From a virus (lineage: Duplodnaviria > Heunggongvirae > Uroviricota > Caudoviricetes), in the IMG/VR virus record IMGVR_UViG_2563366942_000019: a stretch of DNA of 18,919 nucleotides; one strand, given 5' to 3'. Within the stretch, counting starts at the first letter, position 1. Each line of letters starts with the position of its first letter. Position numbers and translations under genes: made by a program. The notes under the pieces were generated by a model. That model made no database searches. It saw only the letters and a program-made list of their open reading frames with translations, and was not told the DNA's origin. Below, one piece after another: positions 1,738-18,919 of this stretch.

Positions 1738-2441
1738 GGTTGCCAGCCTGTTGAATAATCGTAGTCGAGCACCGCCTGAATATCGTCCAGTGCTTCCACC
1801 GCCGCGATATGGTGCTGGGCGTTTGCGAACAAGCGCATATCGTGATCCATGGTGACCGATTCAAACTGGGCAGCGATTTCGTTGGTTAACTCAATCAGAC
1901 CATTATTTTTAGTTTTCCACATTAACCCTGGCGGAATTTTTTTCTCCGCTCCCATTTTTGTGAGTGAAAGCTGTTGGATACGGCTATTTGTATCACTGTG
2001 GAAGTGATGGTTGTTGATGATGATGTAATCGGTTGTGATGGCATCGCGTTGATTTTTGATTGCAGAGTATTTCGCCTCTTTAGCATCGGTTATAGATGGT
2101 TGCCATTTTTCACCATCCCAACGTTCAAAAGAACCTGTCGGGGAAATGACTGTTACATTTTCAGGTAATTGGCCCAATTCTTGAATAATAAGCTGGCTAC
2201 CATCAACTTTGTTATAAACAGTTTGGCCTCGATGATCTTCAATAAGTCTCCATGTTTCATTCTCCCACACTGGAGTAAAACCAGGAACCTTTTCGGGAGG
2301 TGAAATTAATGTGCAATAATTTGGCAAGCCTGTATTAGGTGCAATGTATGCATCAGACTCACCGATATATTCTTGGGAGTCTTGTGAAAAATTATATACA
2401 GTTAGTATTTGAGCTTCATCGGAAAAGGTAAAAGTATTCAT
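1734..2441 (-). CDS. Tail fibre assembly chaperone (Tfa-like)
   Basis: 235 aa ORF immediately downstream of the tail fibre gene and coupled to it by an ATGA overlap (2438-2441). N-terminal region has Tfa-like features (aromatic then Gly/Pro-rich, ...[11 protein letters not shown]...). Position matches Mu U / P2 G. Confidence 0.6.
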
Positions 2442-4078: not shown

Positions 4079-4080
4079 TA

Positions 4081-4812
4081 TTACTCCGGATATACAGACA
4101 TAATTTCGGTGCTCCAGTATCCTGTGCCGACCTTCATCGGTTGGGATTGTGTTAGTCGATCGGGTTGATAAGGTAGTAGTTGAATATATTCCTCCACACA
4201 ATAACCTGTCGCTAAAAATATTCCAGATGACTGGCTGAGGCTTTCTGCAACAGGAGGCAATACTGTAATGACTTCCCCTCCTTGCATGGCACTGCCAATA
4301 ACTGGTATTGGGCTTCGATTAATAAGCCAAATAACAATGCTTTCCAGCTTTGATCGGACATTTTTATATTCATGAATTAATGTGATAAGTGCATTGAATT
4401 CATCTTCATTTAATCCTTTTTCCTCTAGTGTAATATCAACCTTAAAAAAGTAAGCCTTTCCCCCATATTCAAACCATTCTGAAATAGTTCCTGGTAGCGA
4501 AAGTATTTCCAGTACCCGCCGTACCGCCCAAATCGTTCCTTTATATTTATGCAGCTCAATGGCTTGCTTAATTAACTCGCGCTTCTCCCGCTCATCGGTG
4601 GTAAATAACCAACCTTCCAGCCCCTGAACGTGAAATTGTTCTGCAAGGGCTGGTAATGCCGAAGCATCAACCAGGTCGACCAGATAAACCATCAACGCCG
4701 TCAGATCGAGTTGGGCAAAACGCTCGGCGGCGATGTTTGCCAGAATCGAAAAACGCTCATCGCTGGCAAGCGGCGGCGGTGGCAGCAATTTATCCATCGC
4801 TGACTCCGGCAA
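4081..4812 (-). CDS. Baseplate protein, P2 gpI / Mu gp48-like
   Basis: 243 aa; N-terminal [24 protein letters not shown] matches the LLPP..S...R signature of gpI-family tail proteins. Lies between the gpJ-like and fibre genes as in Mu/P2. Start may instead be at Met6; either way it overlaps the gpJ-like stop. Confidence 0.75.
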
Positions 4813-5905
4813 TCGTGACGTCTATTGCGGTGCATTCCGCCCACTCATGCGCCTGCAAAATACGTTTTGTAGGCATATTCAGCGCAACGTCATAGACGCC
4901 ATCGACCTGTAACACTTTGATTATCTGGTTTGGTACAATGTCCTGCCCCAGATGTTTCTGCCGCTGTTGCGTCCAGAGGCTAATCGCTTTACGCGCCGCA
5001 GCCAGCGTTGTCTCCTGATCGGCGGTGGTAAACAGCGTTAGCTGCGCACGGATCTCATACGGCACTCGAAGAGCGCATTTCGCACTCACTTTGTCGGTCA
5101 GCGGTCGTTTTTTCTCCTTGCTGACTTCTTGTTCAATCTGCGCCAGCAACTCCGTGCCGGGTAGACCATTCAGGGTTAGCGGGTAGATCTCCACGCAGCC
5201 TTCTGGCAATCCCTCGTCCGGCCCCAGTACTGCAACGTCAATAATCGACTGGCTAACAGAAAGCGTATGAAAGCGGTATGCGCCATAGCTGCCCGCATTA
5301 CTAAAGCTTTCTGGTGCCAGTTGGATACGCTGGCGCAATGCGTCATCGCTCTCTTCACCGCAGCCGCCCGTTGACGCAGTCAGGTTGGTTACGTTGATGT
5401 CATAATGACCAATCCTGTCGACCAGTGCGCTAATTTGTGCAGGCTGCCAGCCGTTGCCCTGTTCACCTGCTGCGAGGCTGGTGGCAGGAACGGCGATATG
5501 CAAACTCCTGGCCGGAAGCAGAACATCTTCATCGGTGGCGAACATCACGCTATCAGAGGCACTGGCCCGCGTCCCCTGGGGAATCAGGATATTGCTGGTA
5601 TACGCACTGACGACCGAAAACTGCAACGTCGTTTTTGCCGGTTGTGCAGGCAAACGGTGAACGCCCACCAGCTCCCCTAAATAATCCAGCATTGGCGCGC
5701 GGGAATACGCGACCAGGTTCTGTTTCGCCGCTTCCTGAATGGCGATGCGTACAAGGTTTTCACGATAGGCAAACAGGTCGATGAGCAACCGCTCAGCCTG
5801 TGCCGGATAGAGTTTTTTACCGCTGGCATCTTCATATTGCGCAATCATCTCACTGGTAATTTGCGCAGGATCGCGGTCAATAAAATTGGGTTCGGCTATC
5901 GCCAT
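4790..5905 (-). CDS. Baseplate wedge protein, P2 gpJ / Mu gp47 / T4 gp6-like
   Basis: 371 aa; size, position downstream of the gpW-like gene and overlap with neighbours are typical of baseplate J proteins. Confidence 0.75.
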   Translation of the reverse strand: MAIAEPNFIDRDPAQITSEMIAQYEDASGKKLYPAQAERLLIDLFAYRENLVRIAIQEAAKQNLVAYSRAPMLDYLGELVGVHRLPAQPAKTTLQFSVVSAYTSNILIPQGTRASASDSVMFATDEDVLLPARSLHIAVPATSLAAGEQGNGWQPAQISALVDRIGHYDINVTNLTASTGGCGEESDDALRQRIQLAPESFSNAGSYGAYRFHTLSVSQSIIDVAVLGPDEGLPEGCVEIYPLTLNGLPGTELLAQIEQEVSKEKKRPLTDKVSAKCALRVPYEIRAQLTLFTTADQETTLAAARKAISLWTQQRQKHLGQDIVPNQIIKVLQVDGVYDVALNMPTKRILQAHEWAECTAIDVTIAGVSDG

Positions 5906-6255
5906 AACACCTCCGTTGAGTTGATAACGCCGTCAGCGGCGCGCCATTGCACACGTAACGTCAGATGTTCACCGTCGATTACTGGTGTCACCTTCAGCAA
6001 CCGACAGCGCGGTTCCCACTGGCGGATGGCTTCCACCGACTCCCGTACCACATGCGGGATTGCCCGCTCGATGGGGTAATCGATGTAGTGCCACAAGTTG
6101 CTGCCAAACAGCGGTCTGTGAGGATCACTGCCGCGCGGTGTGCGCAGAATGATGTGTATCGCCTGGTGAATATCATCCAGCCCGCAGACGTATTCTTCAG
6201 GCCGCTGCAAGGCCGGTTGCCAGTGCAGCGTTGAGGGGCGTGTTTTTGTTTTCAT
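5896..6255 (-). CDS. Baseplate protein, P2 gpW / Mu gp46 / T4 gp25-like
   Basis: 119 aa; small gp25/gpW-sized protein immediately upstream of the gpJ-like gene with a 10-nt overlap. Confidence 0.7.
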   Translation of the reverse strand: MKTKTRPSTLHWQPALQRPEEYVCGLDDIHQAIHIILRTPRGSDPHRPLFGSNLWHYIDYPIERAIPHVVRESVEAIRQWEPRCRLLKVTPVIDGEHLTLRVQWRAADGVINSTEVLWR

Positions 6256-6316
6256 GAGGGTATTTTCGCCCTGAACGGGCTGTGGAGATATTAAAGCGAT
6301 TTAGAAAACTGATTGA

Positions 6317-6348
6317 TTAAAAAGAGAAAACCCGCCATCAGGCGGGTT
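6317..6348 (-). terminator. Rho-independent terminator-like hairpin between the spike (V-like) and W-like genes
   Basis: Minus-strand RNA would read aacccgcc-ugau-ggcggguu followed by UUCUCUUUUUAAUC, starting 6 nt after the V-like stop (6356-6354). It sits in a 98-nt gap inside an otherwise tightly packed gene string. Confidence 0.45.
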
Positions 6349-6353
6349 AAAAG

Positions 6354-7055
6354 TCAGTGTGAATGGTGGTTGGAGTTGCCACCGCTGTCCTGCAATGCGC
6401 CGCTGGCCTGAACGTTGCCGATCACGTTGACATTGCCGGTTATCGTGGCTGCGTTACCGATGCCTCCACTTCCTGCCATCCCGCCAAGCCAGGTGAGTTT
6501 TTTCATTACCGTGACGTTGCCAGTAAAGGTGCTCATGGGCGCATCTACCGTCACTGCTGCTGCTTTAACCTCGACCTTAGTGGCGTCGATGCTGACATCG
6601 GTCGCTTTAACATCGACGGTATCGGAAGTCACGGTGACCTGTTGGGCTTTAATCTCAACGTTGGGCGATGTCAGGCAGGTACCGTTGATAACCTCAATCA
6701 CGATTTTCTCGATACCGCCGTTGATCGTCAGCTGGTGCGTGCTGCGGTCATATTCAAACGCTGCGCCATCAGAAAACTGGACGTAACGTTTGTCGCGCGA
6801 GGCTACAGGCGCGGTGTCAACCGTAGAATAAACTGCGCCCAGCACCACGCCATCTTCACCGTTATTGTCCAGCAGAACTTCCACTTGCTCGCCCATATCC
6901 GGTAGCCAGTAGTCTTTATTGTCCTGGGAATTGTGTTGAAGTACCGCAAGCCAGTTGCTCTTCAGATTGTCACACTCTGGAAGCGTGACTCGCACCCGAA
7001 CGCTGGTTTCGTCAATATCGCTGATAATCCCCGTTTGACGGGTTACTCCTTTCAT
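6354..7055 (-). CDS. Baseplate central spike, P2 gpV / Mu gp45-like
   Basis: 233 aa; N-terminal OB-like region followed by a Val/Thr-rich beta-repeat stretch (VTVTSDTVDVKATDVSIDATKVEVKAAAVTVDA), a Gly-rich segment and a terminal ...NSNHHSH, consistent with a spike and its apex. Confidence 0.75.
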   Translation of the reverse strand: MKGVTRQTGIISDIDETSVRVRVTLPECDNLKSNWLAVLQHNSQDNKDYWLPDMGEQVEVLLDNNGEDGVVLGAVYSTVDTAPVASRDKRYVQFSDGAAFEYDRSTHQLTINGGIEKIVIEVINGTCLTSPNVEIKAQQVTVTSDTVDVKATDVSIDATKVEVKAAAVTVDAPMSTFTGNVTVMKKLTWLGGMAGSGGIGNAATITGNVNVIGNVQASGALQDSGGNSNHHSH

Positions 7056-7064
7056 ATTTCCTCC

Positions 7065-8105
7065 TTACTGGCTGGTCGCTGGCCCGCGTGACACGTCGAT
7101 TTCAGTGGTATAGCCGCTGCGCACAAAACTGTGAGTAGATTTATCAATCAGCCACTGACCGGAAATCACGCCAAAATCGGTCAGTTCAATTTTATTGCCC
7201 GCCGTCAGTTCCGGGCAGCCCATCATTGTGAGCGTTCCGGTTTGCTGATATTCGTTGTGGCTGTCGAGTGCAGCGTTGGCCTTTGCCTGTGCTGCGCCAA
7301 CGTCCGTCGCCCGACTGTTCAGTTTTAGCGTGTCGGCACTGGTGCCGACTCCACGGGCAAACGGTTTTTGCTGGCTGTCGTGGGTGTAGATAACCAGTTC
7401 TTTTTTCTTACTATTTTGATGCTGTACGGTGGCGTTTTTGTAGATACGGTTAATGGTATCTTTGAAGGTGAAATGCGAAACGTCTTTGCGGTCGATCTTT
7501 TTCACAGGTGCCAGGCAGCGCAGCGTGGGTAAATGTGAAAAAATCAGCTCTTTCGTCGTCACTTTTACGGCATAACCATATTCACTGGCCAGACGTTTGA
7601 GAAATCCAACATCGGTTTCGCCGTACTGTGTCACCCGGTCAATTGTCAGAGGCTCGATTTTGCCCACCAGCTTTAGGCCGTGAGTTTGTGCGATACGGCT
7701 GGCGATAGCCGAAAGCGTCGTTTCTTCAAAGCCCTGGCTGTTACGGGTGCGCAGCGCCTGATTGACGGAAGTGGCGATGCCATCAATATTTACCGTAGAA
7801 GGTGGCGCTGAAATATCAATTTTATCAATAATATACTGACCACAATCGAGCAGCTTTTCTCCCTGATACCCCATATGCAGCGCCAGCGTATCGCCTTTGC
7901 CGGGATACCACTCTTTTATCCAGCGTCCATCTGTGTCATCCAGTGTAATTGCGATGGTATCCGACTCGTTTTTGATGCTGTCGTGGTAACTGATGCTGGT
8001 GACATAGGGTGTGATGTCATAAGTGATATCTTTATGCCCATACCAGAGGGTAAAAATGGGCGTGAGTGTGGCAAAGACGCCACCAGTTACGCTTATCTCA
8101 GCCAT
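7065..8105 (-). CDS. Baseplate hub protein, P2 gpD / Mu gp44 / T4 gp27-like
   Basis: 346 aa; position between the X-like and V-like genes and size match the gpD/late-control-D family. Confidence 0.75.
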   Translation of the reverse strand: MAEISVTGGVFATLTPIFTLWYGHKDITYDITPYVTSISYHDSIKNESDTIAITLDDTDGRWIKEWYPGKGDTLALHMGYQGEKLLDCGQYIIDKIDISAPPSTVNIDGIATSVNQALRTRNSQGFEETTLSAIASRIAQTHGLKLVGKIEPLTIDRVTQYGETDVGFLKRLASEYGYAVKVTTKELIFSHLPTLRCLAPVKKIDRKDVSHFTFKDTINRIYKNATVQHQNSKKKELVIYTHDSQQKPFARGVGTSADTLKLNSRATDVGAAQAKANAALDSHNEYQQTGTLTMMGCPELTAGNKIELTDFGVISGQWLIDKSTHSFVRSGYTTEIDVSRGPATSQ

Positions 8106-8302
8106 GGTGGGATCTCCGATAAGGTTTTATTAACGGAAATGACCGGAATAATGAGCTGAATACCGGAAGGCAGTACCGGGTAAATGGCTACATGTGGATT
8201 GGCGGCGATTATGCGTTCATAAGCCAGTGCATCACCGTAGTAATGCCATGCCAGGTTATCCCAGCGTTCGCCATCGGTGGTGATATGTTCAAGGTATCGC
8301 AT
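8093..8302 (-). CDS. Tail protein X-like (LysM-like fold)
   Basis: 69 aa; GERWDNLAWHYYGDALAYERIIAANPHVAIYPVLPSGIQLIIP fits the gpX pattern G.tld.i..ryYG......e.vl.aNP.l......LP.G..v.lP. Confidence 0.7.
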   Translation of the reverse strand: MRYLEHITTDGERWDNLAWHYYGDALAYERIIAANPHVAIYPVLPSGIQLIIPVISVNKTLSEIPPWLR

Positions 8303-9255
8303 TACCAGCTCCTGGTAATGGTTACGGCAGCAAGCTGGCTCACTGCGGGAGTGGTTTGTTGTACCGTTGTACGTGCCTGCTCAACCAACGACGTGGCTTT
8401 ATCGAACGTCGCTTCGGCGATGTCGCTGGTAATGTCGTCGAAAAGCGCCTGAGCATGGTCAACCAGCGTACTGGCGTCATTGGCGCAGTCCCGGATACCT
8501 GGCATGTTACCCAGTAAAGCTTTAATCTGCGCCGACAACGCTTTTGGTAGGCCTGCCAGCGTTTGCAGATCCATTGGCTGTTTAAACAGGGTTTCGATGG
8601 CGTCGATTGTCTTTTTCAATGACGTAATTATCTTTTCACACTTTTCTTTTAACGCTTTGGCCTCTTTAATCATTGCTTTCACTTTTGCCACCGTTTTTTT
8701 AATATCTTCAATGGATTGTGTCAGTTCATCCAGCATCTCTTTGGCCTTACGCATACCTTCTTCAATGGCGTTTAATATCTGATCAAACCAGGACTCCACC
8801 TTGTCGGGAAAATCGCTCGCCTTTTCCTCGATGTTGGGCTCCTGGGTGGTAATCGCCGGAGGTAAAAGTGGATTTTTAGGATCGCCGGTGTACTCCTGGA
8901 GCGACATCGTTCCGTTTTGGGCAATCACATTGCCCCAGGGATCGGTGTGCTGGTGGGTGGCGGTTAGCTCCGTAATCACAAACCAGCCGCGATAATCGCC
9001 ATTGCCAAATACCAGTGCCATCGCCTTGTGAGCAAGCATGGCTTCACGCAGTCGGTTCAGCTCTGTTGTGGGCTGGCAAAACTGGCTGTGCAGGGAAAAT
9101 TCCAGCGCCAGCATATCCAGCTTATCGCCAATAAACTGCACGCCGGGTTTGCCTTCTATACGGGCATGTGTGGCGTAATCCACGCCCATTGTGCTTTTAA
9201 AGCCGTCCCAGAATGTGACAACCTTAAATTCAATCTCTCCTAAAACGGCATACAT
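8302..9255 (-). CDS. Tail protein with gpU-like N-terminal domain and Lys/Glu-rich coiled-coil C-terminal extension (Mu gp43/N-like)
   Basis: 317 aa; N-terminus MYAVLGEIEFKVV... resembles P2 gpU. The C-terminal ~180 aa are heptad-like and K/E/A-rich (EEGMRKAKEMLDELTQSIEDIKKTVAKVKAMIKEAKALKEKCEKIITSLKK...). ATGA overlap with the tape-measure stop at 9255. Confidence 0.55.
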   Translation of the reverse strand: MYAVLGEIEFKVVTFWDGFKSTMGVDYATHARIEGKPGVQFIGDKLDMLALEFSLHSQFCQPTTELNRLREAMLAHKAMALVFGNGDYRGWFVITELTATHQHTDPWGNVIAQNGTMSLQEYTGDPKNPLLPPAITTQEPNIEEKASDFPDKVESWFDQILNAIEEGMRKAKEMLDELTQSIEDIKKTVAKVKAMIKEAKALKEKCEKIITSLKKTIDAIETLFKQPMDLQTLAGLPKALSAQIKALLGNMPGIRDCANDASTLVDHAQALFDDITSDIAEATFDKATSLVEQARTTVQQTTPAVSQLAAVTITRSW

Positions 9256-11630
9256 CAGGCATACCCCCGGCGCTGTTGTTGCGCCATTACGTCGTTAATC
9301 ATTCTTTCCAGTTCGCGTTTACTCATCGTCAACACGTTCTGAATCTCTTTAGTGGTGTTTTGTCCGTTTCCCTGCACGGTAATCTGTGGCGAAAAATTTA
9401 CCTGGACTTTTCCTGAGGAACGGGAGGGTAGCGTCGCCGGTTTGGTTACGGATTTACCAGGTAAAGAGGCAGATACGGGTTTGGCGGCTGTATTTTTTGC
9501 CGCTGGCGCCGATGACGGCGTAGCCGTTTTGCCGGATGGCGCGAGTTGTTTGCCCACCGGCGGCGTTAAAATCGCACCGGCAACGCCTGGAACAACGGTC
9601 GCGGGGGAGACGGATGCGGTATTAGTCGTGCTTGTAATAGCTGTAGCCGATCCTTCTGTACTAATACCCATCGTGGTTTTTAGCCAGTCTGGGATGGCGT
9701 TTTTTACCTGATCAATAATGCCTTTCAGAGCGGGGAAGGCATTCATTATGCCGTCAACCAGACTGCCCAGAAGATTGCTGCCGAACTCGCTAAAACTTGC
9801 AGGCATCTCGACACCAAACCAATTCATCACACTGGAAAAGGCGCTATAGAACAACTCCAGCGGTGACCAGTCGAGAATCAACCGACAAATTCCTGCAATG
9901 CCGCCGTCAAAGGCCGTGGTGATACGTTGCCAGATGGTCGAAAAGAACCTGGAGATAGGCTCCCAGTTGCGACAAATCAGATAAGCAGCGCCCGCAATCG
10001 CAGTGATGACCAGACCAATGGGATTCATCAATAAAACCCTACCCAACCAGAAGACGGTCTGACCTACCTGTTTCAGTGCGCCAATCAGGCCACGACCAAG
10101 CAGTTGCATTAGCCATTTTGCGCTGCCACCCAATGACTTAACCGCTGATAGCATCTTACTTGCCCCGCCTGTGAGCGCCAGACTTGCCTTGACTTTCAGG
10201 AAGATATCGACCAGACGAATAAACGGCGAGGTGATGAGGTTCGCGCCCAGCTTTAAAACATTCAGCGCGCCGTTAAACAGCCAAACCGCCCCGACGATTT
10301 TCGCAATGTTTTGCACCAGCGCCGGATGTTCGCGTAGCCAGGCGCTGAACTGGCGAATAACCGGCGTAAGGCTTTGTGCCAGCTCGCCAATCGCCGGCAT
10401 AAGCTGCAAACCAATGCTGAGCCATAAATCATTTAATGCCAGCTGTAACGCTTTAGTCTGTTCAATGGGCGAGGCCATTTGCGCAGAAAAGTCAGCGTTA
10501 ATCAGATTCTTGCTGGTGGCTTGCATGGCAGAGGCTTTTAACTGGCGATATTCCTCCATATTCGCCAGCATAGGTGCCAGGAATTCCACCGTTTGCGCAT
10601 CGCCGAACATTTCGCCCAGATTAAATTGCGTTACCATCGATTGCAGCGCATTGCTGCGAGCAGATAAATCTTCAATCTGCATAGTGCGTTTGAAGGTGTC
10701 GAGGATCGCCGGATTCATCTTCTCAAGCTGCATTTGTACGATATGAGTCATGGCTTCGCTAACACCCATACCGTTTTGCTGATGTTCAAGCAGAGAGCCT
10801 TGCAGATCGACGCCCTGGCTGGCGAACCAGCTATCGGTTTTTTTCGAAAAGGTGGTTTGCAGAAAGTGGTCGAAATTCTCCGCCGCCGCACTGGCGCTGG
10901 CCCCGTTTTTCATGGCGATCTGCATGGTGGCGCTCAGTTCAGCCATACCTTCCAGACCCTGAGCGCCGGTTTTACCTGCAAATTTCTCTATCCACTGCGT
11001 TTGTTCAGCAATGGCAGGCCCACCGCTTTTGCTAATGCCGTACATCATGTTTTGCGCGGCGTGGAAATTTTCCAGGGCAATATTCAGTCGATCATGGGTT
11101 GCGAGCGCGGCATTCGCCCATGTTTCAGCACTTTCGCGCGTGGCGGTGGCAGCTTTGGCGATCTCCGGCATATAACGGTTGAGATCCTGTATCGACGACA
11201 AATTGCCTTCGATCAGCGTTTGGGCTGCGTTCTGTAAGGTGGTCTGCTGCTGGTTAAAATCCATGCTCCAGTCGCGCAGATTAAGGCTGAGCGTCTCGCG
11301 GGTTGTAGCATTCATCCCACCTTTGGTCGCCATATTGACCATGTTGTCCTGAAACTCATACGGCAACTTCCAGTCGGGGGCTTCAACATTGAATACTTTG
11401 CTAAATTGCCCGGCAAATGTTTGGGTTTTCTCCATCAGATTAGCGCGGCTGCGGCTATTTTCCTCCAGGCGGAGAGCGGAATCGGCAAGCTGCTGCGTTA
11501 GTTTGATAACTGTCGCCTGCTGAGTAGAGAGAGTTAACAATGTTCTGGCGTTGAGTGAGCCGTAACGGGCTATTGCCTGCGTCAACGTCTCATTACGCGC
11601 CTGAAGCTGGGTAATAATATCGTTGGCCAA
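9255..11630 (-). CDS. Tail tape measure protein
   Basis: 791 aa; largest ORF; helical Ala/Gln/Leu-rich body with hydrophobic segments and a Ser/Thr/Pro/Ala-rich low-complexity C-terminus. Located after the tube and chaperone genes as in all contractile tails. Confidence 0.85.
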   Translation of the reverse strand: MANDIITQLQARNETLTQAIARYGSLNARTLLTLSTQQATVIKLTQQLADSALRLEENSRSRANLMEKTQTFAGQFSKVFNVEAPDWKLPYEFQDNMVNMATKGGMNATTRETLSLNLRDWSMDFNQQQTTLQNAAQTLIEGNLSSIQDLNRYMPEIAKAATATRESAETWANAALATHDRLNIALENFHAAQNMMYGISKSGGPAIAEQTQWIEKFAGKTGAQGLEGMAELSATMQIAMKNGASASAAAENFDHFLQTTFSKKTDSWFASQGVDLQGSLLEHQQNGMGVSEAMTHIVQMQLEKMNPAILDTFKRTMQIEDLSARSNALQSMVTQFNLGEMFGDAQTVEFLAPMLANMEEYRQLKASAMQATSKNLINADFSAQMASPIEQTKALQLALNDLWLSIGLQLMPAIGELAQSLTPVIRQFSAWLREHPALVQNIAKIVGAVWLFNGALNVLKLGANLITSPFIRLVDIFLKVKASLALTGGASKMLSAVKSLGGSAKWLMQLLGRGLIGALKQVGQTVFWLGRVLLMNPIGLVITAIAGAAYLICRNWEPISRFFSTIWQRITTAFDGGIAGICRLILDWSPLELFYSAFSSVMNWFGVEMPASFSEFGSNLLGSLVDGIMNAFPALKGIIDQVKNAIPDWLKTTMGISTEGSATAITSTTNTASVSPATVVPGVAGAILTPPVGKQLAPSGKTATPSSAPAAKNTAAKPVSASLPGKSVTKPATLPSRSSGKVQVNFSPQITVQGNGQNTTKEIQNVLTMSKRELERMINDVMAQQQRRGYA

Positions 11631-11819
11631 AATTGTTTCTCTTTAAATATTGATAATGGCCCGCTGGTTATTTTTCTAAAAAAAGGGGCAGGGAAGAAAT
11701 AAACCTGACGGGCTTGGGAAACTCGCAGACATCAGGTCTGCGAGTCATATTCGATTTTTATTTGGGCGCTGGCTTCATCCAGCCAGTTGCTAAAGTCATC
11801 GACGGTAAGGGCGTCTATC

Positions 11820-12137
11820 TCACTGGGTGGAAAGCGAAACCATCTCGCCAGTAACGCCATCGCTTGCCATAACAGTGGCGGATTCTGTAGCCACGCTAAG
11901 CATGGATTGAAATCGTTTCTGCAATGCCTGGTAATCCAGCAAATCCATTTCAGCTAAATCTTCTGGCACCAGTCCGGTCATTGCCGCCATTAGCGGTTCA
12001 TCCCACTCTTCAGGTTTTTCGCTGATCCGGCGCGCGTTGCGCATATCTTTTACTTTCAGGCGACGTAATTGCAGAGTGTTAATTACGTCTCCCGCCGCTG
12101 AAGTAAACGGGAACTGTAAGATATAATGTTCTTTCAT
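11820..12137 (-). CDS. Tail assembly chaperone (P2 gpE / Mu gp41-like)
   Basis: 105 aa acidic protein between the tube and tape-measure genes, the conserved slot for the tape-measure chaperone. The -1 frame stays open for about 33 codons past its stop. Confidence 0.55.
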   Translation of the reverse strand: MKEHYILQFPFTSAAGDVINTLQLRRLKVKDMRNARRISEKPEEWDEPLMAAMTGLVPEDLAEMDLLDYQALQKRFQSMLSVATESATVMASDGVTGEMVSLSTQ

Positions 12138-12162
12138 TTTGTGTCCTTATTTATTTTGCAAA

Positions 12163-12182
12163 GTTCGGGGCCGTAGCCCCGA
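12163..12182 (-). other. Stem-loop directly after the tail tube gene stop (possible attenuator or RNA-stabilising hairpin)
   Basis: ttcggggc-cgta-gccccgaa perfect 8-bp GC-rich stem between the tube stop (12188) and chaperone start (12137). No clear U-tract on the minus strand. Confidence 0.4.
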
Positions 12183-12187
12183 ATAAC

Positions 12188-12712
12188 TTAGCCACCGATG
12201 TTATTGCGATAGGTACTTAATTGATCCACACCATTAACCCGGAAAATATTGGCCATATAATCAAGTTCAAGCAGCGTTTCACCATCAACTACTTGTTTAA
12301 TATAAGTGCAACCAAAGGCGCTGCTGAATTCCGGGTTTTCATTCTGTTTAAATGTGCCCAGTGGATTCTTTTTAAACATCACGGTTAAATGTGTCACTAG
12401 CGCTAATTGATTCGCTTTCCCCTGGGAGTTATAGCAATCAATACTGGAGCGGCACTGTAATGCAACCGCCTGCCACGGGTTTGCCGTTTTACGCATTACG
12501 TCCTGATAGAAGGAGTTCCATTTAATTTCGCCCTCCAGTTTATCGAAACCCGCCGGGAGTTCGATTTTACCCACCATGCCCAGTGCTTTATGCTCCTGCA
12601 TAATTAAACTGACATCCGGCAATTTAATTTCGGTTGCACGACCTAAAAGGTTATTACCATCGAGATAAATATTGGCGTTGGTAATACGGTTAATTTGAAT
12701 TTTTCCAGCCAT
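12188..12712 (-). CDS. Tail tube protein (P2 FII / Mu M-like)
   Basis: 174 aa; size and position immediately downstream of the sheath gene (1-nt overlap at 12712). Confidence 0.8.
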   Translation of the reverse strand: MAGKIQINRITNANIYLDGNNLLGRATEIKLPDVSLIMQEHKALGMVGKIELPAGFDKLEGEIKWNSFYQDVMRKTANPWQAVALQCRSSIDCYNSQGKANQLALVTHLTVMFKKNPLGTFKQNENPEFSSAFGCTYIKQVVDGETLLELDYMANIFRVNGVDQLSTYRNNIGG

Positions 12713-14142
12713 TAGCTATTGCTCTCCAGAGAGACTAAATATTCAGAAGTAATTTCAGTTTCAAACGTCAGACGTTCCAGCGGCGGCGGCGGGGTGAATT
12801 TATAGCTCAGCAATAAATGCCCAGCGCTGAGTTCAGTCGGTGAATTTCGCGCCGGATCGTACCAGCATTCAAAGCCAAGCAGTGCGCCGTCGGCAATCAG
12901 CTTACGGCCCCAGGTATTTACCGATTCGGTCAGGGCATCAATCAGCGCCTGATTAATCGGCATATCAATATACTGCTGACTGAAATAACGGATTGACTCA
13001 TTAATTACATCGCCTGTCCGGCGGACGTTTTCAAAGTTACGCATATGGGTCACGGTAGGCCACGCTGCAGTGCGGTTGCCCCACAAGCGCAGACCAGAGC
13101 CGTAACTATTGAAAATAGTGGTAATGCCGTTTTCGTTTAGCTGATTCACTTCGCTTTGTGGATCATCAATCATTGCGGAAAGCGAACGTTCAATACCGGT
13201 AATACCCTGAATTTCTTGGTTTGAGTTGCTCCACCAGAAACCTTTTTCGAGGTCTACTTTGGCACGTAGCCCGGCAGCGCGCGAAGAGAGCGGTTCGAGA
13301 ACTTCTTGGTTAGTGATGCCATCGTAAACTTTGACGTGTGGGTAACATAAACGCGCACGATCAGAGCTGGTGTTGAAGTTGATAGCCCCTTGCGAACCGC
13401 GTCCTGCCAATACCTGCTGGAATGTCGTCCCAATCGGGGCATCAATGTAGGTAATCGCACCAAGTTTTTCCGCTTGTGCAATCAGCTCTGTAGTTACTGA
13501 TTTTTGCGTACAGAACACGGGAGCAAGCAGGATTTTGGCGTAGAAACCATACAGGTTATAGGTGTCCTGTAGCAGTTCCATCCCCGTGCGATCGCCTGCG
13601 GTATTAACGGCACCGATAATATCGGCTGCGGTGACCTTTGTAGGGTCGCACCAGGAATAATAGGCGCAAACTTTCGCACCAGGAGGAATGTCGGCTCCTG
13701 TACGGGTAATTATGCCTGTTTGTTCATCTACGCTAAATGCTGCGGTGTTATAGGTTGATGAATTTGATGAAGAGGGCTTTAGAACCACGTTACGCACATT
13801 GCGGTGAGTGAGTTTCGCCTGGTTGTTAGCATCAAAAGTGATACTTTCATTGCTGATGTTGGAGCCATGTTTTGCCGGATCCAGCACGTTAATCACCACC
13901 ACCGTACCGGCACCGTGGTCATAAATCGCCTTCAGTGCCTGTGGGATCGTAAAGTTAGTCTGAGTCGAACCAAACTGCGCAGCATCGCTTTCAGAAAGGC
14001 ATAATGTTGGTTTATTTACCGGACCACAGGGGGCCGTACCGATTAAAGCGATGACGGCGGATTTTACCGCTTTAACCGGACGCGGGCCGGTTTCAATTTC
14101 AATGGTTTCTACACCGTGCAGATAATTAGCTGCCATGTACAA
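12712..14142 (-). CDS. Contractile tail sheath protein (P2 FI / Mu L-like)
   Basis: 476 aa; N-terminus ...NYLHGVETIEIETGPRPV resembles the conserved sheath N-terminus; size and position are typical. Confidence 0.85.
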   Translation of the reverse strand: MYMAANYLHGVETIEIETGPRPVKAVKSAVIALIGTAPCGPVNKPTLCLSESDAAQFGSTQTNFTIPQALKAIYDHGAGTVVVINVLDPAKHGSNISNESITFDANNQAKLTHRNVRNVVLKPSSSNSSTYNTAAFSVDEQTGIITRTGADIPPGAKVCAYYSWCDPTKVTAADIIGAVNTAGDRTGMELLQDTYNLYGFYAKILLAPVFCTQKSVTTELIAQAEKLGAITYIDAPIGTTFQQVLAGRGSQGAINFNTSSDRARLCYPHVKVYDGITNQEVLEPLSSRAAGLRAKVDLEKGFWWSNSNQEIQGITGIERSLSAMIDDPQSEVNQLNENGITTIFNSYGSGLRLWGNRTAAWPTVTHMRNFENVRRTGDVINESIRYFSQQYIDMPINQALIDALTESVNTWGRKLIADGALLGFECWYDPARNSPTELSAGHLLLSYKFTPPPPLERLTFETEITSEYLVSLESNS

Positions 14143-14323
14143 TTTCCTCTCCGTTATTTTGTTCTTCCTGAGTGATGACAGGAGTCAGATGATTGCGGGC
14201 AATCATGGTCATGACCCACTCGTTGTCTTCTGGCAGATCAATTTCACTGTTCGGCCACAATAAGATTTCTTGTCCGTCGGCAAGGGTGACGCCGCTTGCC
14301 GGGCCGTTGTAGATGTATTTCAT
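14126..14323 (-). CDS. Small tail-associated protein (Mu gp37-like)
   Basis: 65 aa ORF overlapping the sheath start by 17 nt and the upstream gene by 4 nt, in the position of Mu gp37 just upstream of the sheath gene. Confidence 0.45.
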   Translation of the reverse strand: MKYIYNGPASGVTLADGQEILLWPNSEIDLPEDNEWVMTMIARNHLTPVITQEEQNNGEEIVHGS

Positions 14324-14775
14324 TCAGTTTCCTCGTAATTAACTTCAGTAAGCAGGGTAAGGTCCGTGCTTTCCCGTTTCGCGATAAACAGCGAGCTGGT
14401 CGCCATTTCCAGGATGTAGCGGCAGAAACCGCCGCTCTCACCTGTATTAATTTCTTTTTCAAGCCAAAGCAGACGATCGCAATCAGGAAGCTGAAGGCCA
14501 CCCAATGCGCTGCGTATGTGATCAAGTGCGTTTAACGCGTCACAATTTTTGCCAACAATAACGGTGGCGGTTAAGCGAAGTATTTGCTGTTGCACGATGG
14601 CATCACTGCTTTCGGGCGTGGTAAAGACAGAACCGCTATAATTAACAATCACCGCAACTTGTTGTGTCTGTGGAATATATTTCTGGGCATCCGTAGATGA
14701 AATAAATACGTCCATTTCGGGGTTGTGCTCACGTAATCTTGTCACGACACAATTCATTACAGATAAAATTTCCAT
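14320..14775 (-). CDS. Tail completion/terminator-type protein (Mu gp36-like)
   Basis: 151 aa, first gene after the intergenic region and terminator, in the position of Mu gp36 upstream of gp37 and the sheath gene. Confidence 0.45.
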   Translation of the reverse strand: MEILSVMNCVVTRLREHNPEMDVFISSTDAQKYIPQTQQVAVIVNYSGSVFTTPESSDAIVQQQILRLTATVIVGKNCDALNALDHIRSALGGLQLPDCDRLLWLEKEINTGESGGFCRYILEMATSSLFIAKRESTDLTLLTEVNYEETE

Positions 14776-14882
14776 ATAGGCTGTACCTTAATTACCGCTC
14801 ACTTCGTTATCGTTGAGATATATTCTGAAGCAGTGAAGGTGAAGAATCTTTTAATGTGATTTAGAGAAAAAATTGAATGGTT
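14776..14882 (-). promoter_or_regulatory. Putative promoter region for the tail operon (possibly activator-dependent)
   Basis: 107-nt AT-rich gap between the terminator and the first tail gene. No convincing sigma70 -35/-10 pair was found by eye, as would be expected for a Mor/C-dependent late promoter. Confidence 0.3.
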
Positions 14883-14920
14883 AAAAAAATCCCCACCCTT
14901 ACATAAGGGTGGGGATTTTT
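14883..14920 (-). terminator. Rho-independent (bidirectional) terminator after the lysis cassette
   Basis: ccccaccct-tacata-agggtgggg 9-bp stem flanked by aaaaaaa (14883-14889) and attttt (14915-14920). On the minus strand the stem is followed by a U7 tract. Abuts the stop of the 14920-15234 gene. Confidence 0.7.
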
Positions 14921-15234
14921 CAATAACTGCCACGTTGTAACAGCTCGATTTTGCTATATAAGGCATCCAGCTTCGCTTCTAATACTGCTTGCCCACGAAG
15001 ATAATCTTCTCTGCGGACATAATGCAGCGGAAGCTCGGCACGAAATTCGAGAAATTCTCTTTCCAGTTTCGACCAACTTGTTTCTGATTCCCTGCGGGCA
15101 TTTTCCAGAGACTCAAAACGCTCATTAAGTCGTTTTTCAATTTGTGCTAACAGCAGTTTTCCGGCAGCAAACATTAATCCAACGAAGGAAAGCATAAGGG
15201 AGATCACTTCCCAAAAATCGATACTGAGTTTCAT
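14920..15234 (-). CDS. Lysis-cassette membrane protein: N-terminal transmembrane helix plus coiled-coil (i-spanin-like, or Mu gp25 releasin-like)
   Basis: 104 aa; hydrophobic segment WEVISLMLSFVGLMFAAGKLLLA followed by a charged heptad region (EKRLNERFESLENARRESETSWSKLEREFLEFRAEL). Good RBS (agagggg) upstream; lies 12 nt after the transglycosylase stop. Confidence 0.45.
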   Translation of the reverse strand: MKLSIDFWEVISLMLSFVGLMFAAGKLLLAQIEKRLNERFESLENARRESETSWSKLEREFLEFRAELPLHYVRREDYLRGQAVLEAKLDALYSKIELLQRGSY

Positions 15235-15246
15235 CGGCCCCTCTGA

Positions 15247-15852
15247 TTAATGAAGACAGCTTGCCTGTCCCCAGAGTAAATAGCGGGCGGCATGTTGATA
15301 GAGGATCATCTTTGGATAGCGACGATTTTCTCGCCAGTTCGTGGCGCTGCGCCCGGCGTTGACTTGCTCAACATGACCAAACCAGCTAGTGGCATCTAAC
15401 CCTTTGGATGCAGCCAGTTTTTTATCCCGGTTAACCCACCCCTGACCGCCGTTATAGGCGCTTAGGGTAAACGCCATACGCTGACAATCATTTTTCGCAG
15501 AGATGTTTTTCCACAAATGCTGGTCATATTGCACCAGCGCGCGAATCGCCCAGGTTGGGTTATACGGTTTGTTTTCACGCAATTGTGGATACAACTGGCT
15601 TATCCATGTCGCTGTAGCAGGCATAAATTGCGCCATACCTTGTGCGCCAACGGGGGAACGTACCATTGGCTGCCAGGCGGACTCCTGGTGTAATTGCCCG
15701 GCAAAGTCGGCCACTGGAGCATTCAGCCCCCAGACTTCTCGAGCTGTACGAATTAGTTCGTTTCGCCATGCCAGAGAGGCTCGCGGCGGTTCAGAGGCGT
15801 TAAGCGGGAAAAGAACGAAAATAATCATAGACGCGATATATTTCAGCCACAT
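15247..15852 (-). CDS. Lytic transglycosylase (SLT domain) with N-terminal signal/SAR-like sequence; putative endolysin
   Basis: Start chosen at the internal ATG (15852-15850) giving MWLKYIASMIIFVLFPLNA. SLT family-1 motifs are present: HQESAW, GAQGMAQFMP, AYNGGQGW. The track ORF starting at 15930 would overlap the upstream gene by 76 nt. Confidence 0.75.
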   Translation of the reverse strand: MWLKYIASMIIFVLFPLNASEPPRASLAWRNELIRTAREVWGLNAPVADFAGQLHQESAWQPMVRSPVGAQGMAQFMPATATWISQLYPQLRENKPYNPTWAIRALVQYDQHLWKNISAKNDCQRMAFTLSAYNGGQGWVNRDKKLAASKGLDATSWFGHVEQVNAGRSATNWRENRRYPKMILYQHAARYLLWGQASCLH

Positions 15853-15854
15853 CA

Positions 15855-16142
15855 CTATAGCCCTAAGGCGACGGAAAGACAGACGGCGGCAACGATGATG
15901 GCGCGGCGAATCATTGCCGCCGCGCAGCAACGAGGTTCCTTCCAGGGGCTAAAAGAGTCAGGCCGTGCCCAGGGGAACAAACTGCGATCGAGCCAGTATC
16001 CCAGCACCGCGGAAAGCGAAACCAGGCTTAGTTTATAAATGACGACCGGGATCTGTGCTGAAGAGGTCCAGCCGATCACGACAAACAGCGCGACGGAAGC
16101 GACCAGCCAACCGGAAAGCCGGGGAAGAGTGACTTTTTTCAT
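15855..16142 (-). CDS. Small membrane protein with 2-3 hydrophobic segments (putative holin or pinholin)
   Basis: 95 aa; hydrophobic stretches LSGWLVASVALFVVIGW, LSLVSLSAVLGYWL and AIIVAAVCLSVALGL. Strong RBS (caggagataccgtATG). Directly precedes the transglycosylase gene. Confidence 0.45.
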   Translation of the reverse strand: MKKVTLPRLSGWLVASVALFVVIGWTSSAQIPVVIYKLSLVSLSAVLGYWLDRSLFPWARPDSFSPWKEPRCCAAAMIRRAIIVAAVCLSVALGL

Positions 16143-16437
16143 ACGGTATCTCCTGATAAGTGAGCGTTTAGTGTCGCCAGAACCCGCCAGTGAAGAATGA
16201 AAAAAGCTTTAATAAATAAGTTTAAAAAATAGATTCTCTATAAATGAACATGCCCGCTAATAAATCCACTCAGCAATTAAAGAGCAAAAGGTGACCTCGC
16301 GAATAAGCGCGTCATTATGCAGGGAAAAGATGATGGTGAATCGTAGGAATAGTCAGTAGTTATTTGATTTTTAAAGTTTGTTTAAGAAAGTCAGCGACTG
16401 TGAGGGAAACGATCTTTTTACACTACAGGTAAAAATA
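16143..16437 (-). promoter_or_regulatory. AT-rich region upstream of the lysis cassette, interrupted at its distal end by the IS
   Basis: 295-nt AT-rich non-coding stretch between the IS left end and the first lysis gene; presumed lysis/late promoter region. Confidence 0.3.
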
Positions 16438-16480
16438 ATACTGTATGTGCATGGGTCTTCCCCGATCATGGTGGGAAGAC

Positions 16481-17701
16481 TCAGTACGCCATATTCAGTT
16501 TCCCATAGTGGAACATAACTCCCAGTTTAAAGCGTTCCCGGTTTCGGTATCCCCTGGCCTTTATCCTCAGCAGTCTGATCTTGCTGTTCAGCGCCTCCGC
16601 ATTTCCATTCGAGACGCGATGACGCATTGCATTCAGTATTCCGTATAACCGTTTTTTAATGGTTTTCGCTGCGTTTTTCATCATCGGCACATCACATTCA
16701 GACGCCAGCGATATCCACTGCAACCAGTCATTCCTGCGTTCTGTGCTCCAGGGGCGATCCCAGATATTTTTTGCCAGCTCTTTCAGTGTCCAGCACTGGC
16801 TTGTCTGTTGCATCTGTTCCCGCAACCACATCAGCTTTTCCTGCCGGGACTCAGTCATCCATTTGTCGCTGTACTGCCACAGGAAGCGGGTACCTTTGGC
16901 CTGACGACGACTTTCAACAGGGAGGTGCGGATGTTCATTCTGGCGGGTTTTATCAACCACTTCGCCCAGTTGCTTCGCCACATGGAAGCGATCGAAGGCG
17001 ATTTTCTCGACCGCATTGGGTAAATGGATACGCGCTGCTCTTATATAGCCCGCATTCATGTCCATCGACAGTGTTTTGATGGCCAACAACTGACTGTCAG
17101 TAAGCGAACGGAGATAGCTGGCAAGACTCTCTGTGCCACGATCATCGGTTAATGCCAGTGCCCGCCCGTCGCGATCAGATACCACGGTTATATACCTATG
17201 CCCTTTTTTAAAGGCGACTTCGTCTACATTCATATGACGCACTGATAAAGGCTTTTTAATCCGCGACAGGCCTCGCTTAACCGCGCGGGTCATGATGCCG
17301 TCAACGGCATTCCAGCTAAGTTTAAGTTGTTTTCTGACCGCATCAACGGTGCTGATTTTAAGCCATGAGAGCACGAACGATTCGAACAGCAGAGTGTACC
17401 GACTGCCGGAACCTGCCCACGGTACAGGCAGAGTCTGGCAGCCATGCTCCGGGCACATAACGCGGGGAACATCGGCTTCTACTAATGTCATGAACTGGCA
17501 GGTATCAAGGTGGCGCCATTTACGATGTCGGTGATCGTGAACAGAACAGGATTTCCTGCAGGTCGGACAGGTTAACTGAGTATTTTCAGCAATTCCGACT
17601 GTAACAGTAACGGAACCTGCATTTTCATCGAGGGTAAGGGATTTAACCTGCCATGGTGCAGTCAGGTTAAGGATATGGGCATAGAGGGATTTTTCGTCCA
17701 T
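16481..17701 (-). CDS. ISL3-family transposase
   Basis: 406 aa; N-terminal zinc-finger-like CPTCRKSC...CPEHGC, then the DDE region with the ISL3-type motif NVDEVAFKKGHRYITVVSD. Confidence 0.85.
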   Translation of the reverse strand: MDEKSLYAHILNLTAPWQVKSLTLDENAGSVTVTVGIAENTQLTCPTCRKSCSVHDHRHRKWRHLDTCQFMTLVEADVPRVMCPEHGCQTLPVPWAGSGSRYTLLFESFVLSWLKISTVDAVRKQLKLSWNAVDGIMTRAVKRGLSRIKKPLSVRHMNVDEVAFKKGHRYITVVSDRDGRALALTDDRGTESLASYLRSLTDSQLLAIKTLSMDMNAGYIRAARIHLPNAVEKIAFDRFHVAKQLGEVVDKTRQNEHPHLPVESRRQAKGTRFLWQYSDKWMTESRQEKLMWLREQMQQTSQCWTLKELAKNIWDRPWSTERRNDWLQWISLASECDVPMMKNAAKTIKKRLYGILNAMRHRVSNGNAEALNSKIRLLRIKARGYRNRERFKLGVMFHYGKLNMAY

Positions 17702-17719
17702 ATAATTTCATTCTGAAGC

Positions 17720-18238
17720 TTACTTTAAACTGATATTATTATTTTTTGCCCACTTTCTTAATCTTCCATTAGCGTTGGCGTAAGGCGAAGATGTGTTAAA
17801 TGAGATCATTCTCCCCATCGTCCATTTTGTGTACCATGGTCTTCCATACAAAATATCATCGGTACGATCATTAATAAGGTTCACAATCTCATTTTTTACA
17901 GTATGAAGTTCAGCTACTAACAACTCATAACTTAACTCACTGTAATCTGAGTAAAATTTTTGAGCAAGAAGGCCAAGCTGATTCCATTTATAGCCAGTTT
18001 CCGGAAAATCGACAGGCAGACCTTTAGCATCAGAAGCGATCCACTTTACAACAAGAGCATTCCATCCAAGCAGATACGAAACGAGATCACGAACACTCAT
18101 CTCCGTTCCTTTGGCGTGTCCGTCCATTGATTTATCTGAAGTAATTTCTGGTGGGATTGTGTTGAGGTAACTAATTAATTTACTAAAATTTTTATCAATA
18201 GCTAAAAGCAGTTCAGCTTTTGTTTGCGGCACACTCAT
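17720..18238 (-). CDS. ClbS/DfsB-family (DUF1706) four-helix-bundle protein; passenger gene within the IS
   Basis: 172 aa; motifs DGHAKGTEMSVRDLVSYLLGW, FPETGYKWNQLG and RPWYTKWTMGRMISFNTSSPY recalled as characteristic of the ClbS/DfsB family. Good RBS (gaggga). Located inside the IS inverted repeats, upstream of and co-oriented with the transposase. Confidence 0.6.
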   Translation of the reverse strand: MSVPQTKAELLLAIDKNFSKLISYLNTIPPEITSDKSMDGHAKGTEMSVRDLVSYLLGWNALVVKWIASDAKGLPVDFPETGYKWNQLGLLAQKFYSDYSELSYELLVAELHTVKNEIVNLINDRTDDILYGRPWYTKWTMGRMISFNTSSPYANANGRLRKWAKNNNISLK

Positions 18239-18352
18239 AAGAATTCCCTCTCATGTAAAAAGAGACACCATAAAGGTACTGTGTGGTGTTTGAAAATCAC
18301 TCAATTATGTACCACCCACCACAACAGGGGAAGACCCATGTGCATACAGTAT

Positions 18353-18571
18353 CGTGTAAAATGATACTCCTGTTGATAAGAAACATAACGCAAACAATAT
18401 ATTTATTTAGTGAATTTATGCGTTCATTAATATTAATAATTTATATTTTTGTTAATTGTTTATTTGTTTGTTGAATGTATTGAGTAGCAGTAATGACAAC
18501 TGCTTAGCGTATATCCGTGGTTTTACACGCATCGGGTCTTATTCAGGATGCAAGATATATGGAGATGAAAA
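18353..18571 (+). promoter_or_regulatory. AT-rich upstream region of the Mor-family gene
   Basis: About 220 nt, strongly AT-rich with repeated ttaat/tttat tracts (cattaatattaataatttatatttttgttaattgtttatttg); GGAG RBS 7 nt before the ATG at 18572. Confidence 0.3.
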
Positions 18572-18919
18572 ATGATACGAAAATCAAAAGAGATGGCCCG
18601 GACACCGGAGATCATTAACGACCTGGCTTTTCATGCATCGCAAGTTCTGATTGAAAGCATCAATCTCGACAGTTCATCGGCAGAAAATGTGGGCTTTGCC
18701 ATTGCCGACCGAATGATGCGTAACTGGGGCGGACAAAGCATTTATTTCCCTAAGGGGATCTCCGGACGAGCATCGGAGCGTGACTACCAAATCTATAGCG
18801 AGTGCGATGGGCGCAACTACGCCGAATTAGCGAAGAAATATAATCTGACGCTGCAATGGATTTATAAGATTGTGAAACGCGTACATGCGGAAAAGCAACA
18901 GCGCCGCAGTAATTCGTAA
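18572..18919 (+). CDS. Mor/C-family transcriptional activator (Mu middle/late operon regulator-like)
   Basis: 115 aa complete ORF (stop at 18917-18919). C-terminal ...ERDYQIYSECDGRNYAELAKKYNLTLQWIYKIVKR is the helix-turn-helix region characteristic of the Mor/C activator family. Confidence 0.75.
   Translation: MIRKSKEMARTPEIINDLAFHASQVLIESINLDSSSAENVGFAIADRMMRNWGGQSIYFPKGISGRASERDYQIYSECDGRNYAELAKKYNLTLQWIYKIVKRVHAEKQQRRSNS

Follow-up and report, generated by a model that had tools for sequence, protein, structure and literature searches.

Within the 18,919-nucleotide stretch of viral DNA analyzed here (IMG/VR record IMGVR_UViG_2563366942_000019, hereafter the window), a gene for a Mor/C-family transcription activator (mor) stands opposite to the lysis and contractile-tail operons of a head-less island. 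With moderate confidence, we regard this island, located between yjbD and lysC, as a carotovoricin-type R-tailocin cluster whose activation by Mor is gated by the SOS response, and whose SOS control has been cut in this copy by the insertion sequence (IS) ISEc53. In undamaged cells, LexA would occupy a canonical SOS box overlapping a promoter about 225 nt upstream of mor and would repress the gene; upon DNA damage LexA would be cleaved and Mor made. A Mor dimer would then bind, in trans, a box upstream of two promoters lacking a -35 element and recruit RNA polymerase as Mu Mor does at Pm, so that the lysis operon (holin, SLT, gp25-like) and, past a terminator, the tail operon (Gp37 to fibre) would be switched on and the tail particles released by lysis. 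As a diffusible activator acting in trans, Mor would make the orientation of its gene irrelevant. In this strain and ten other Escherichia coli strains, ISEc53 in the middle of the SOS box would remove LexA control together with the native -35 region of the mor promoter.

The activator gene and its translation signal were placed as follows:
18572-18919, plus strand: mor, encoding a Mor/C-family transcription activator of 115 amino acids, monocistronic and complete (Pfam, PDB sequence and fold matches).
18561-18564, plus strand: GGAG ribosome-binding site of mor, inside the conserved ATATGGAGAT, invariant in eight lineages.

A preliminary description of the window, made from its letters alone, had recognized a Mor/C-family gene on the plus strand, divergent from the lysis and tail genes and reading out of the window. 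Family, strand and divergence were borne out, the holin, SLT and gp25-like genes and the whole tail module all being located on the minus strand, while the gene proved to end inside the window: it runs from an ATG at 18572, behind an upstream region covering 18353-18571, to a TAA stop that forms bases 18917-18919, the last codon of the window. Pfam PF08765 (Mor) matched residues 10-112 of the 115-residue protein with E = 7e-38 (129.3 bits, cut-off 24.9), and sequence comparison retrieved the solved Mu Mor (1rr7, E = 5e-8) and Mu C (E = 7e-5, residues 46-109). The best seven PDB fold matches of an AlphaFold model (pLDDT 82) in Foldseek were all Mu Mor or Mu C, with probabilities of 0.95-1.0 at TM scores of only 0.33-0.41. 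The protein thus shares family and fold with Mu Mor and C, the C-terminal helix-turn-helix included, but differs from them in sequence, with an identity of only about 24-27% over the structural alignment.

Beyond position 18919, where the preliminary description had pointed for further context, no operon continues from mor. E. coli MS 21-1, which matches the queried mor region with 100% identity, has the convergent core gene lysC immediately after mor, and beyond it pgi and yjbEFGH; mor forms the right edge of an island bounded by yjbD, slipin and nucleotidyltransferase genes on one side and lysC on the other. Outside the island family, the nearest Mor relatives recovered by profile search were about 50% identical, and no Pectobacterium protein, and so not RdgB, was listed among the best 120 matches. 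Two other candidates for informative relatives were set aside, P0032 as a frameshift-ridden assembly of the same locus and P0024 as an ordinary Mu-like prophage end with GemA-Mor adjoining mfd.

The genes that Mor would control are arranged in two operons separated by a terminator:
14920-16142, minus strand: lysis operon with holin (15855-16142), SLT lytic transglycosylase (15247-15852) and gp25-like membrane protein (14920-15234) genes (Pfam; homology to BcepMu gp21, gp22 and gp25).
14884-14921, minus strand: intrinsic terminator that closes the lysis operon, with a 17-bp stem and a U run behind it (dG -26.9 kcal/mol, z = -5.7), conserved in position in other genera.
1734-14775, minus strand: tail operon with Gp37, gp38-like, sheath, tube, chaperone, tape measure, U, X, D, V, W, J, I, fibre and fibre-assembly protein genes (Pfam; collinear with BcepMu gp37-gp51 and with the carotovoricin cluster).

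The holin belongs to the Pfam family Holin_2-3, a gap of 145 bp separates the small membrane-protein gene from Gp37, and the gene between Gp37 and sheath encodes a protein of 65 amino acids. Pfam and the annotation of the window genes revealed no head, packaging, replication, integration, repressor or transposase gene of a phage in the island. A complete contractile-tail module without head, packaging, replication and integration genes, accompanied by its own lysis cassette (Holin_2-3 and SLT transglycosylase), is what characterizes an R-type tailocin.

The divergent position of mor finds its explanation in the ancestry of the island. Burkholderia phage BcepMu encodes the closest relative of Mor among complete phages, gp01 (49% identity), which is the last gene of a leftward early operon, while the late genes run rightward in the order holin gp21, SLT gp22, gp25, head genes, gp37, gp38, and sheath through fibre. 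All island proteins from Mor to tail protein I have collinear BcepMu homologues with amino-acid identities of 25-71%; genes 2-20 (the early region), Rz/Rz1 and gp26-36 (the head module) have been lost. Derived from a BcepMu-like transposable phage, fixed in the chromosome and devoid of head genes, the island is no longer itself a Mu-like transposable phage with Mor in its lytic cascade. Because BcepMu gp01 already opposes the late genes, the orientation of mor is an inherited layout. The premise of the preliminary description, that mor, C, lys, head and tail genes are all co-directional, applies to Mu itself but not to this lineage. The island differs from BcepMu, a complete transposable phage whose gp01 ends a long early operon under the phage repressor, in having a LexA box instead of a repressor-controlled early operon. 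It differs from Mu, with its two-step, co-directional cascade of Mor and then C, in that a single activator seems to suffice for all late promoters.

Outside its own family, the tube protein of the island is closest to a Pectobacterium protein (76% identity), the locus of which adjoins prtDEF-type type I secretion genes and has a ferredoxin gene. By our own matching of gene content and location to published descriptions, this locus corresponds to the cluster of carotovoricin (Ctv), a characterized, DNA-damage-inducible R-type tailocin. Both clusters are head-less and chromosomally fixed and share the gene order holin, SLT, Gp37, gp38-like, sheath, tube, chaperone, tape measure, U, X, D, V, W, J, I, fibre, with amino-acid identities of 32-76%. 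In contrast to the island, the Ctv cluster has no adjacent mor gene, no LexA-like box in the 20 kb examined, a type I secretion operon upstream, a ferredoxin gene and extra lysis genes. The third gene of the lysis operon in the window (14920-15234, minus strand) matches BcepMu gp25 and not Rz; Pectobacterium Ctv keeps two extra genes at this place.

As a strong intrinsic terminator ends the lysis operon, the tail operon needs a promoter of its own, and one candidate was found upstream of each operon:
14822-14872, minus strand: tail-operon promoter, consisting of a T-tract (14867-14872), the 16-bp box TAAATCACATTAAAAG (14848-14863), a 20-nt spacer and the -10 hexamer CAGAAT (14822-14827), without -35 element (alignments, register table).
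16170-16230, minus strand: holin (lysis) promoter, consisting of an AT block (16207-16230), TAAAG (16207-16211), TTTTCATT (16196-16203), a 20-nt spacer and the -10 hexamer GACACT (16170-16175), without -35 element (alignments, register table).

Scanning 14700-16460 for sigma-70 promoters with both hexamers yielded none, compared with 2.3 expected, and the boxes were scanned by position-weight matrix and regular expressions. For the tail promoter, the T-tract, a box of the template TAAAG-N3-ATTAAAAG, the spacer of 20 nt (21 in one lineage) and the -10 hexamer were present in the window and seven orthologues; the hexamers read CAGAAT, CAAAAT, AAAAAT, GATAAT or AATAAT, with A2 and T6 invariant. 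An alternative -10, AATACn, was dropped in favor of nAnAAT three bases upstream, which has the invariant A2 and T6 and fits BcepMu and Ctv. When the holin promoters were aligned on their conserved -10 (GAYACT or CATACT), TAAAG appeared in the register of the tail promoter, followed by N3 and TTTYC, and the 24-nt AT block ATTTTTTAAAGTTATTTATTAAAG upstream of it (16207-16230 in the window) varied hardly at all in most lineages and is similar to an UP element. A lineage with 90% identical Mor, assigned to Enterobacter hormaechei by one source (L027, 6496-7000), displayed a degenerated SOS box and UP-like block but retained the holin promoter core TAAAG-N3-TTTTCATT, 20 nt, GAGACT.

The same element was recovered outside the island family. 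In the GC-rich genome of BcepMu, the box TAAAGCNGATTAAAAGA occurs exactly twice, as does the 17-mer TAAAGCCGATTAAAAGA (0.01 expected), in each case upstream of the holin gene and of gp32, and both boxes stand 20 nt before -10-like hexamers (CAAGAT and GATGAT), the same spacing as in the island. In the Ctv cluster, TTTTTTCTAAAACAGATTAAAAG, 20 nt and GATACT precede the Gp37 gene in the same architecture as at the tail promoter of the island, and TAAACTCCTTTAAAAT, 20 nt and CATAAT before the holin gene fit the same template. A scan of IMG/VR revealed 61 stretches with an exact box match, about 42 of them BcepMu-like elements, in all of which the box shared the strand of the late genes: upstream of the holin gene (9), upstream of gp32 (16), in head-less holin-SLT-[box]-sheath clusters (10), after the tube gene (5) or directly after mor (2). 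It is because of their position, orientation and conservation that the boxes carry weight as evidence.

These promoters resemble the known targets of the family. At Mu Pm, a Mor dimer binds a 16-bp element centered at -43.5 which replaces the -35 hexamer, with a proximal UP subsite just upstream (PMC4390567), and Mu late promoters have -10 hexamers and no -35 (PMC2582627). The island shares with them a -10 without -35, a 16-bp upstream element and an AT-rich stretch just upstream, though the sequence of its box is unlike that of Mu. Action in trans on the two intergenic regions (16143-16437 and 14776-14882), considered in the preliminary description as one of two explanations, is thereby supported as far as comparative sequence goes, since both regions contain conserved promoters of the activator type, and activation of the lysis and tail operons by Mor may be called well supported by this comparative evidence.

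Two further observations concern relatives of these promoters. Three IMG/VR contigs with a GC content of 0.66-0.68 (L034, L061 and L070) showed the order holin-SLT-[box]-sheath without enough space for head genes and, as far as the contigs extend, without a mor gene; they may be independent BcepMu-derived tailocins in Burkholderia-like hosts. In BcepMu (L022, 18829-18855), the predicted late-promoter -10, GATGAT, shares bases with the annotated gp32 ATG (18850), and the true start codon of gp32 is probably further downstream than annotated.

Between the holin gene and mor, the window displays the IS and the two parts of an operator that it has split:
16453-18337, minus strand: ISEc53 (ISL3 family, 1885 bp), between mor and holin, with imperfect terminal inverted repeats and an 8-bp target duplication (Pfam, RefSeq annotation, inverted repeat I1).
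16439-16452, no strand assigned: left part of the split LexA operator, TACTGT and ATGTGCAT, the last 8 bp being the left copy of the target duplication (sequence; intact box in IS-free genomes).
18338-18351, no strand assigned: right copy of the target duplication, ATGTGCAT, and the right end of the LexA operator, ACAGTA (sequence).
18357-18362, plus strand: TAAAAT, candidate -10 of a LexA-controlled rightward mor promoter (within GTGTAAAATG, conserved in seven of eight lineages).

An alignment of the holin-mor intergenic region across eight lineages unveiled a palindrome with the consensus ACTGTATATGTATACAGT that is invariant in seven of them while its flanks are poorly conserved, and which in those seven agrees with the LexA consensus TACTGTATATATATACAGTA at 17-19 of 20 positions. 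After removal of the IS, the box of the window reads TACTGTATGTGCATACAGTA (17/20). In an IS-free strain, the 37-kb locus contains a single strict LexA pattern (0.00 expected); the minimal CTGT-N8-ACAG alone, found once with 0.40 expected, is not significant. As the target duplication ATGTGCAT is identical to the central 8 bp of the box, ISEc53 sits exactly mid-operator. The distance of the box to the mor ATG is 221-230 nt in six of seven lineages, and that to the holin ATG 296-347 nt. Directly to its right, the conserved GTGTAAAATG provides hexamers for both directions, TAAAAT being the candidate -10 towards mor and the overlapping TGTAAA (18355-18360) representing a TTTACA -35 of a leftward promoter on the opposite strand. 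The box therefore overlaps two mirror-image candidates: the rightward one, CTGTAT-17-TAAAAT, matches at 8 of 12 positions and has its weak -35 inside the box. A TTTACA left of the SOS box was dropped as a promoter element, since it occurs in E. coli only and is not conserved.

We favor the reading that the LexA box controls mor, because the distance between them is nearly constant, because the holin operon has a conserved promoter of its own, because direct SOS-induced lysis ahead of tail synthesis would be counter-productive, and because the analogous circuits PrtR/PrtN and RdgA/RdgB work in this way. For R-pyocins of Pseudomonas aeruginosa, DNA damage relieves the repression by PrtR of the small activator PrtN, which acts in trans. 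The circuit proposed for the island is alike in having a damage-relieved small activator acting in trans on tailocin and lysis promoters, but PrtN is not a Mor-family protein, and its control relies on the dedicated cleavable PrtR rather than on LexA itself. In Pectobacterium, the cleavable repressor RdgA and the Mor-like activator RdgB, switched on after DNA damage, govern the induction of carotovoricin and pectin lyase.

Several observations weigh against the proposed circuit. The conserved 16-bp boxes, 20 nt upstream of the -10 at both late promoters, are centered near -40.5 by the present register and not at -43.5 as in Mu. The preliminary description had suggested searching the two regions for a shared dyad element; TAAAG in the same register is shared, but the box is more like a direct than an inverted repeat, and its second half-site differs, being TTTYC at the holin promoter and ATTAAAAG at the tail promoter. 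The tail box of the window has two mismatches, and such a match is not significant in the window alone (0.21 expected). A comparison with BcepMu proteins found no Rz/Rz1 spanin homologue in the island, RNAalifold predicted no conserved pairs in the mor leader of about 210 nt, for which no clear function emerged, and the L027 lineage has lost the SOS box. Furthermore, the tape-measure gene of strain 2016C-3878 has an internal stop and the fibre gene of MS 21-1 is flagged as partial. Finally, the leftward candidate, TTTACA-16-TACAGT, with its -10 inside the box, matches at 9 of 12 positions and is the only consensus-grade promoter in the intergenic scan, so that LexA might control a leftward transcript instead of, or besides, mor.

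Since both hexamers are conserved, the sequence fits either direction at the LexA box, and the best surviving alternative is that the box controls the leftward promoter towards the lysis genes, or both divergent promoters, with mor driven from elsewhere, for example from the block 80-130 nt upstream of its ATG. Besides the strength of the leftward candidate, the invariance of its TTTACA in seven lineages speaks in its favor, as does the divergent, overlapping arrangement of early and repressor promoters in Mu-type phages. Yet a strongly conserved promoter of the activator type, about 230 nt beyond the box, already belongs to the holin operon, and the stretch between this promoter and the box is unconserved and of variable length, in contrast to the nearly constant distance from box to mor; lysis induced directly by SOS before tail synthesis would again be counter-productive. 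We therefore consider leftward control unlikely.

Two other conserved blocks were noticed in the intergenic region, the first of which was placed as follows:
16364-16386, no strand assigned: conserved block 2, TTGATTTTTAAAGTTTGTTTAAG, between the holin promoter and the SOS box, partly fitting the Mor-box template read towards mor.

As a third Mor-type promoter facing mor, block 2 was not accepted, the fit being clean only in Dryocola and Phytobacter; judged by its sequence, it may act as a promoter for autoregulation or as the binding site of another factor. The second block, TTTATTCATTTTTTGAATGTATTGA...GCACCTGTTT, lies at 18470-18520 in the window, 80-130 nt upstream of the mor ATG, and displayed no recognizable promoter, RNA structure or Rfam match. 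An Rfam search of the regulatory region returned only sub-threshold matches, on the terminator hairpin.

Whether the island is still in use bears on a further alternative, namely that it is an inert prophage remnant in which mor and its orientation survive only as relics of the past, with no function today. The orthologous island of Salmonella Typhimurium is indeed catalogued as prophage remnant Def4/BTP6 (PMC5322425), and in the literature it figures as a remnant and not as a regulated tailocin. Some strains have the above-mentioned tape-measure stop or partial-flagged fibre gene, and an IS insertion is tolerated in eleven genomes. Nevertheless, mor comparisons between genera revealed saturated synonymous sites (pS 0.6-0.98) with pN of 0.02-0.13, and a ratio of non-synonymous to synonymous substitution (dN/dS) of about 0.03-0.07 where calculable, indicating strong purifying selection. 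All tail genes are open in the window, and the promoter boxes, SOS box and terminator have been kept across genera at one chromosomal locus, the island standing beside lysC across species. In addition, the homologous Ctv cluster, as matched by us to the descriptions, is a tailocin producer in the literature. An inert remnant thus appears quite improbable.

The Salmonella island (STM4198-STM4219) occupies the same lysC locus, encodes a 90% identical Mor, and has the same SOS box and promoters; it differs from the window in lacking an IS and in having gtrABC, an operon for O-antigen modification, inserted between V and W. In Salmonella Infantis SARB27 (L004, 6451-9286), a gtrABC O-antigen glucosylation operon was likewise located between the baseplate W and V genes. 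Searches by locus tags, Def4 and E. coli tailocins found no literature that treats the Salmonella or E. coli island as a regulated tailocin or deals with its regulation. Two other elements were rejected as comparable systems: the ST131 "tailocin" is a different, complete P2-like prophage, and BceTMilo is P2/KL3-like and uses Ogr, not Mor.

That Mor mainly regulates unlinked host genes, the tail cluster being controlled otherwise, is a very remote prospect in our view. It has a precedent in the control of pectin lyase by RdgB in Pectobacterium, which is said to go back to Liu et al. 1994; against it stand the late-promoter box of the family upstream of the tail operon in every orthologue and the lack of any other regulator gene in the island.

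The IS itself contains two genes, both on the minus strand, for a transposase (16481-17701; Pfam DDE_Tnp_ISL3, 1.3e-58) and a ClbS/DfsB (DUF1706) passenger (17720-18238), and its transposase, terminal inverted repeats and 8-bp target duplication ATGTGCAT are those of the ISL3 family. The passenger, located upstream of the transposase on the same strand, is a ClbS/DfsB four-helix-bundle protein from the family of the colibactin self-resistance protein. We reconstructed the IS-free junction in silico by removing the IS and one copy of the duplication, and searched it against all complete E. coli genomes. The island was present in 197 of 5426 (about 3.6%), including IAI39, CE10 and ST648 strains; in 186 of these the junction aligned in one piece, with holin and mor divergent as here, and only 11, including IAI39, CE10 and MS 21-1, carried ISEc53. 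Strain 2016C-3878 has the island without the IS, and E. coli K-12 has no such island. The same divergent layout beside lysC, without IS, was displayed by Salmonella, Dryocola, Phytobacter, two Superficieibacter species, a metagenomic lineage and the Enterobacter hormaechei-like lineage. From these unbroken, same-orientation junctions it follows that the insertion of ISEc53 is a recent, simple event without inversion. Although the IS sits exactly between mor and the holin gene, the inversion at this junction that the preliminary description had offered as its other explanation is refuted to the point that we give it practically no credence, as the comparison with IS-lacking relatives that it had itself put forward showed the orientation unchanged in E. 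coli and seven other lineages, the target duplication is clean with a simple empty site, and BcepMu has the identical relative orientation.

For the strain of the window, the consequence of the insertion is probably that the cluster has been uncoupled from the SOS signal and is either silent or expressed independently of SOS, because the IS destroys the operator and replaces the rightward -35 region, and because both IS genes point towards the holin operon.

Tentatively, and going beyond what we would expect with confidence, we propose that the lysC "remnant" still works as an SOS-inducible tailocin, all of it governed by one cluster-encoded Mor directly under LexA, possibly auto-amplified from block 2. 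If this is true, a natural IS insertion in the operator would yield strains with a weapon production uncoupled from DNA damage. New in this study are the carotovoricin/BcepMu-type cluster at lysC, the single Mor behind a canonical SOS box, the shared late-promoter box and the IS in the operator. The puzzle of orientation dissolves, the arrangement being the ordinary, ancestral BcepMu layout, and a compact model (LexA, then Mor, then two promoters lacking -35) becomes available for a carotovoricin-like locus of E. coli, Salmonella and other Enterobacteriaceae, which in Salmonella has until now passed for a dead prophage remnant. The late-promoter box common to BcepMu-like phages, the carotovoricin cluster and the island could be used to annotate Mor-dependent promoters, and the alleles with ISEc53 in the SOS box represent natural operator knockouts that can be compared with intact strains.

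Some minor features of the island and its surroundings deserve mention. The tail-fibre open reading frame (2438-4201, minus strand) contains a near-perfect internal duplication of about 50 amino acids; RefSeq lists the tail fibre of MS 21-1 as two partial pseudogenes, but it is a single open frame in the window. On the left flank of the island (window 1-1268, plus strand; L001, 992-2916), a slipin (SPFH) gene is followed by a gene with a nucleotidyltransferase domain. An internal stop interrupts the slipin gene of MS 21-1, but IAI39 and 2016C-3878 have it intact.

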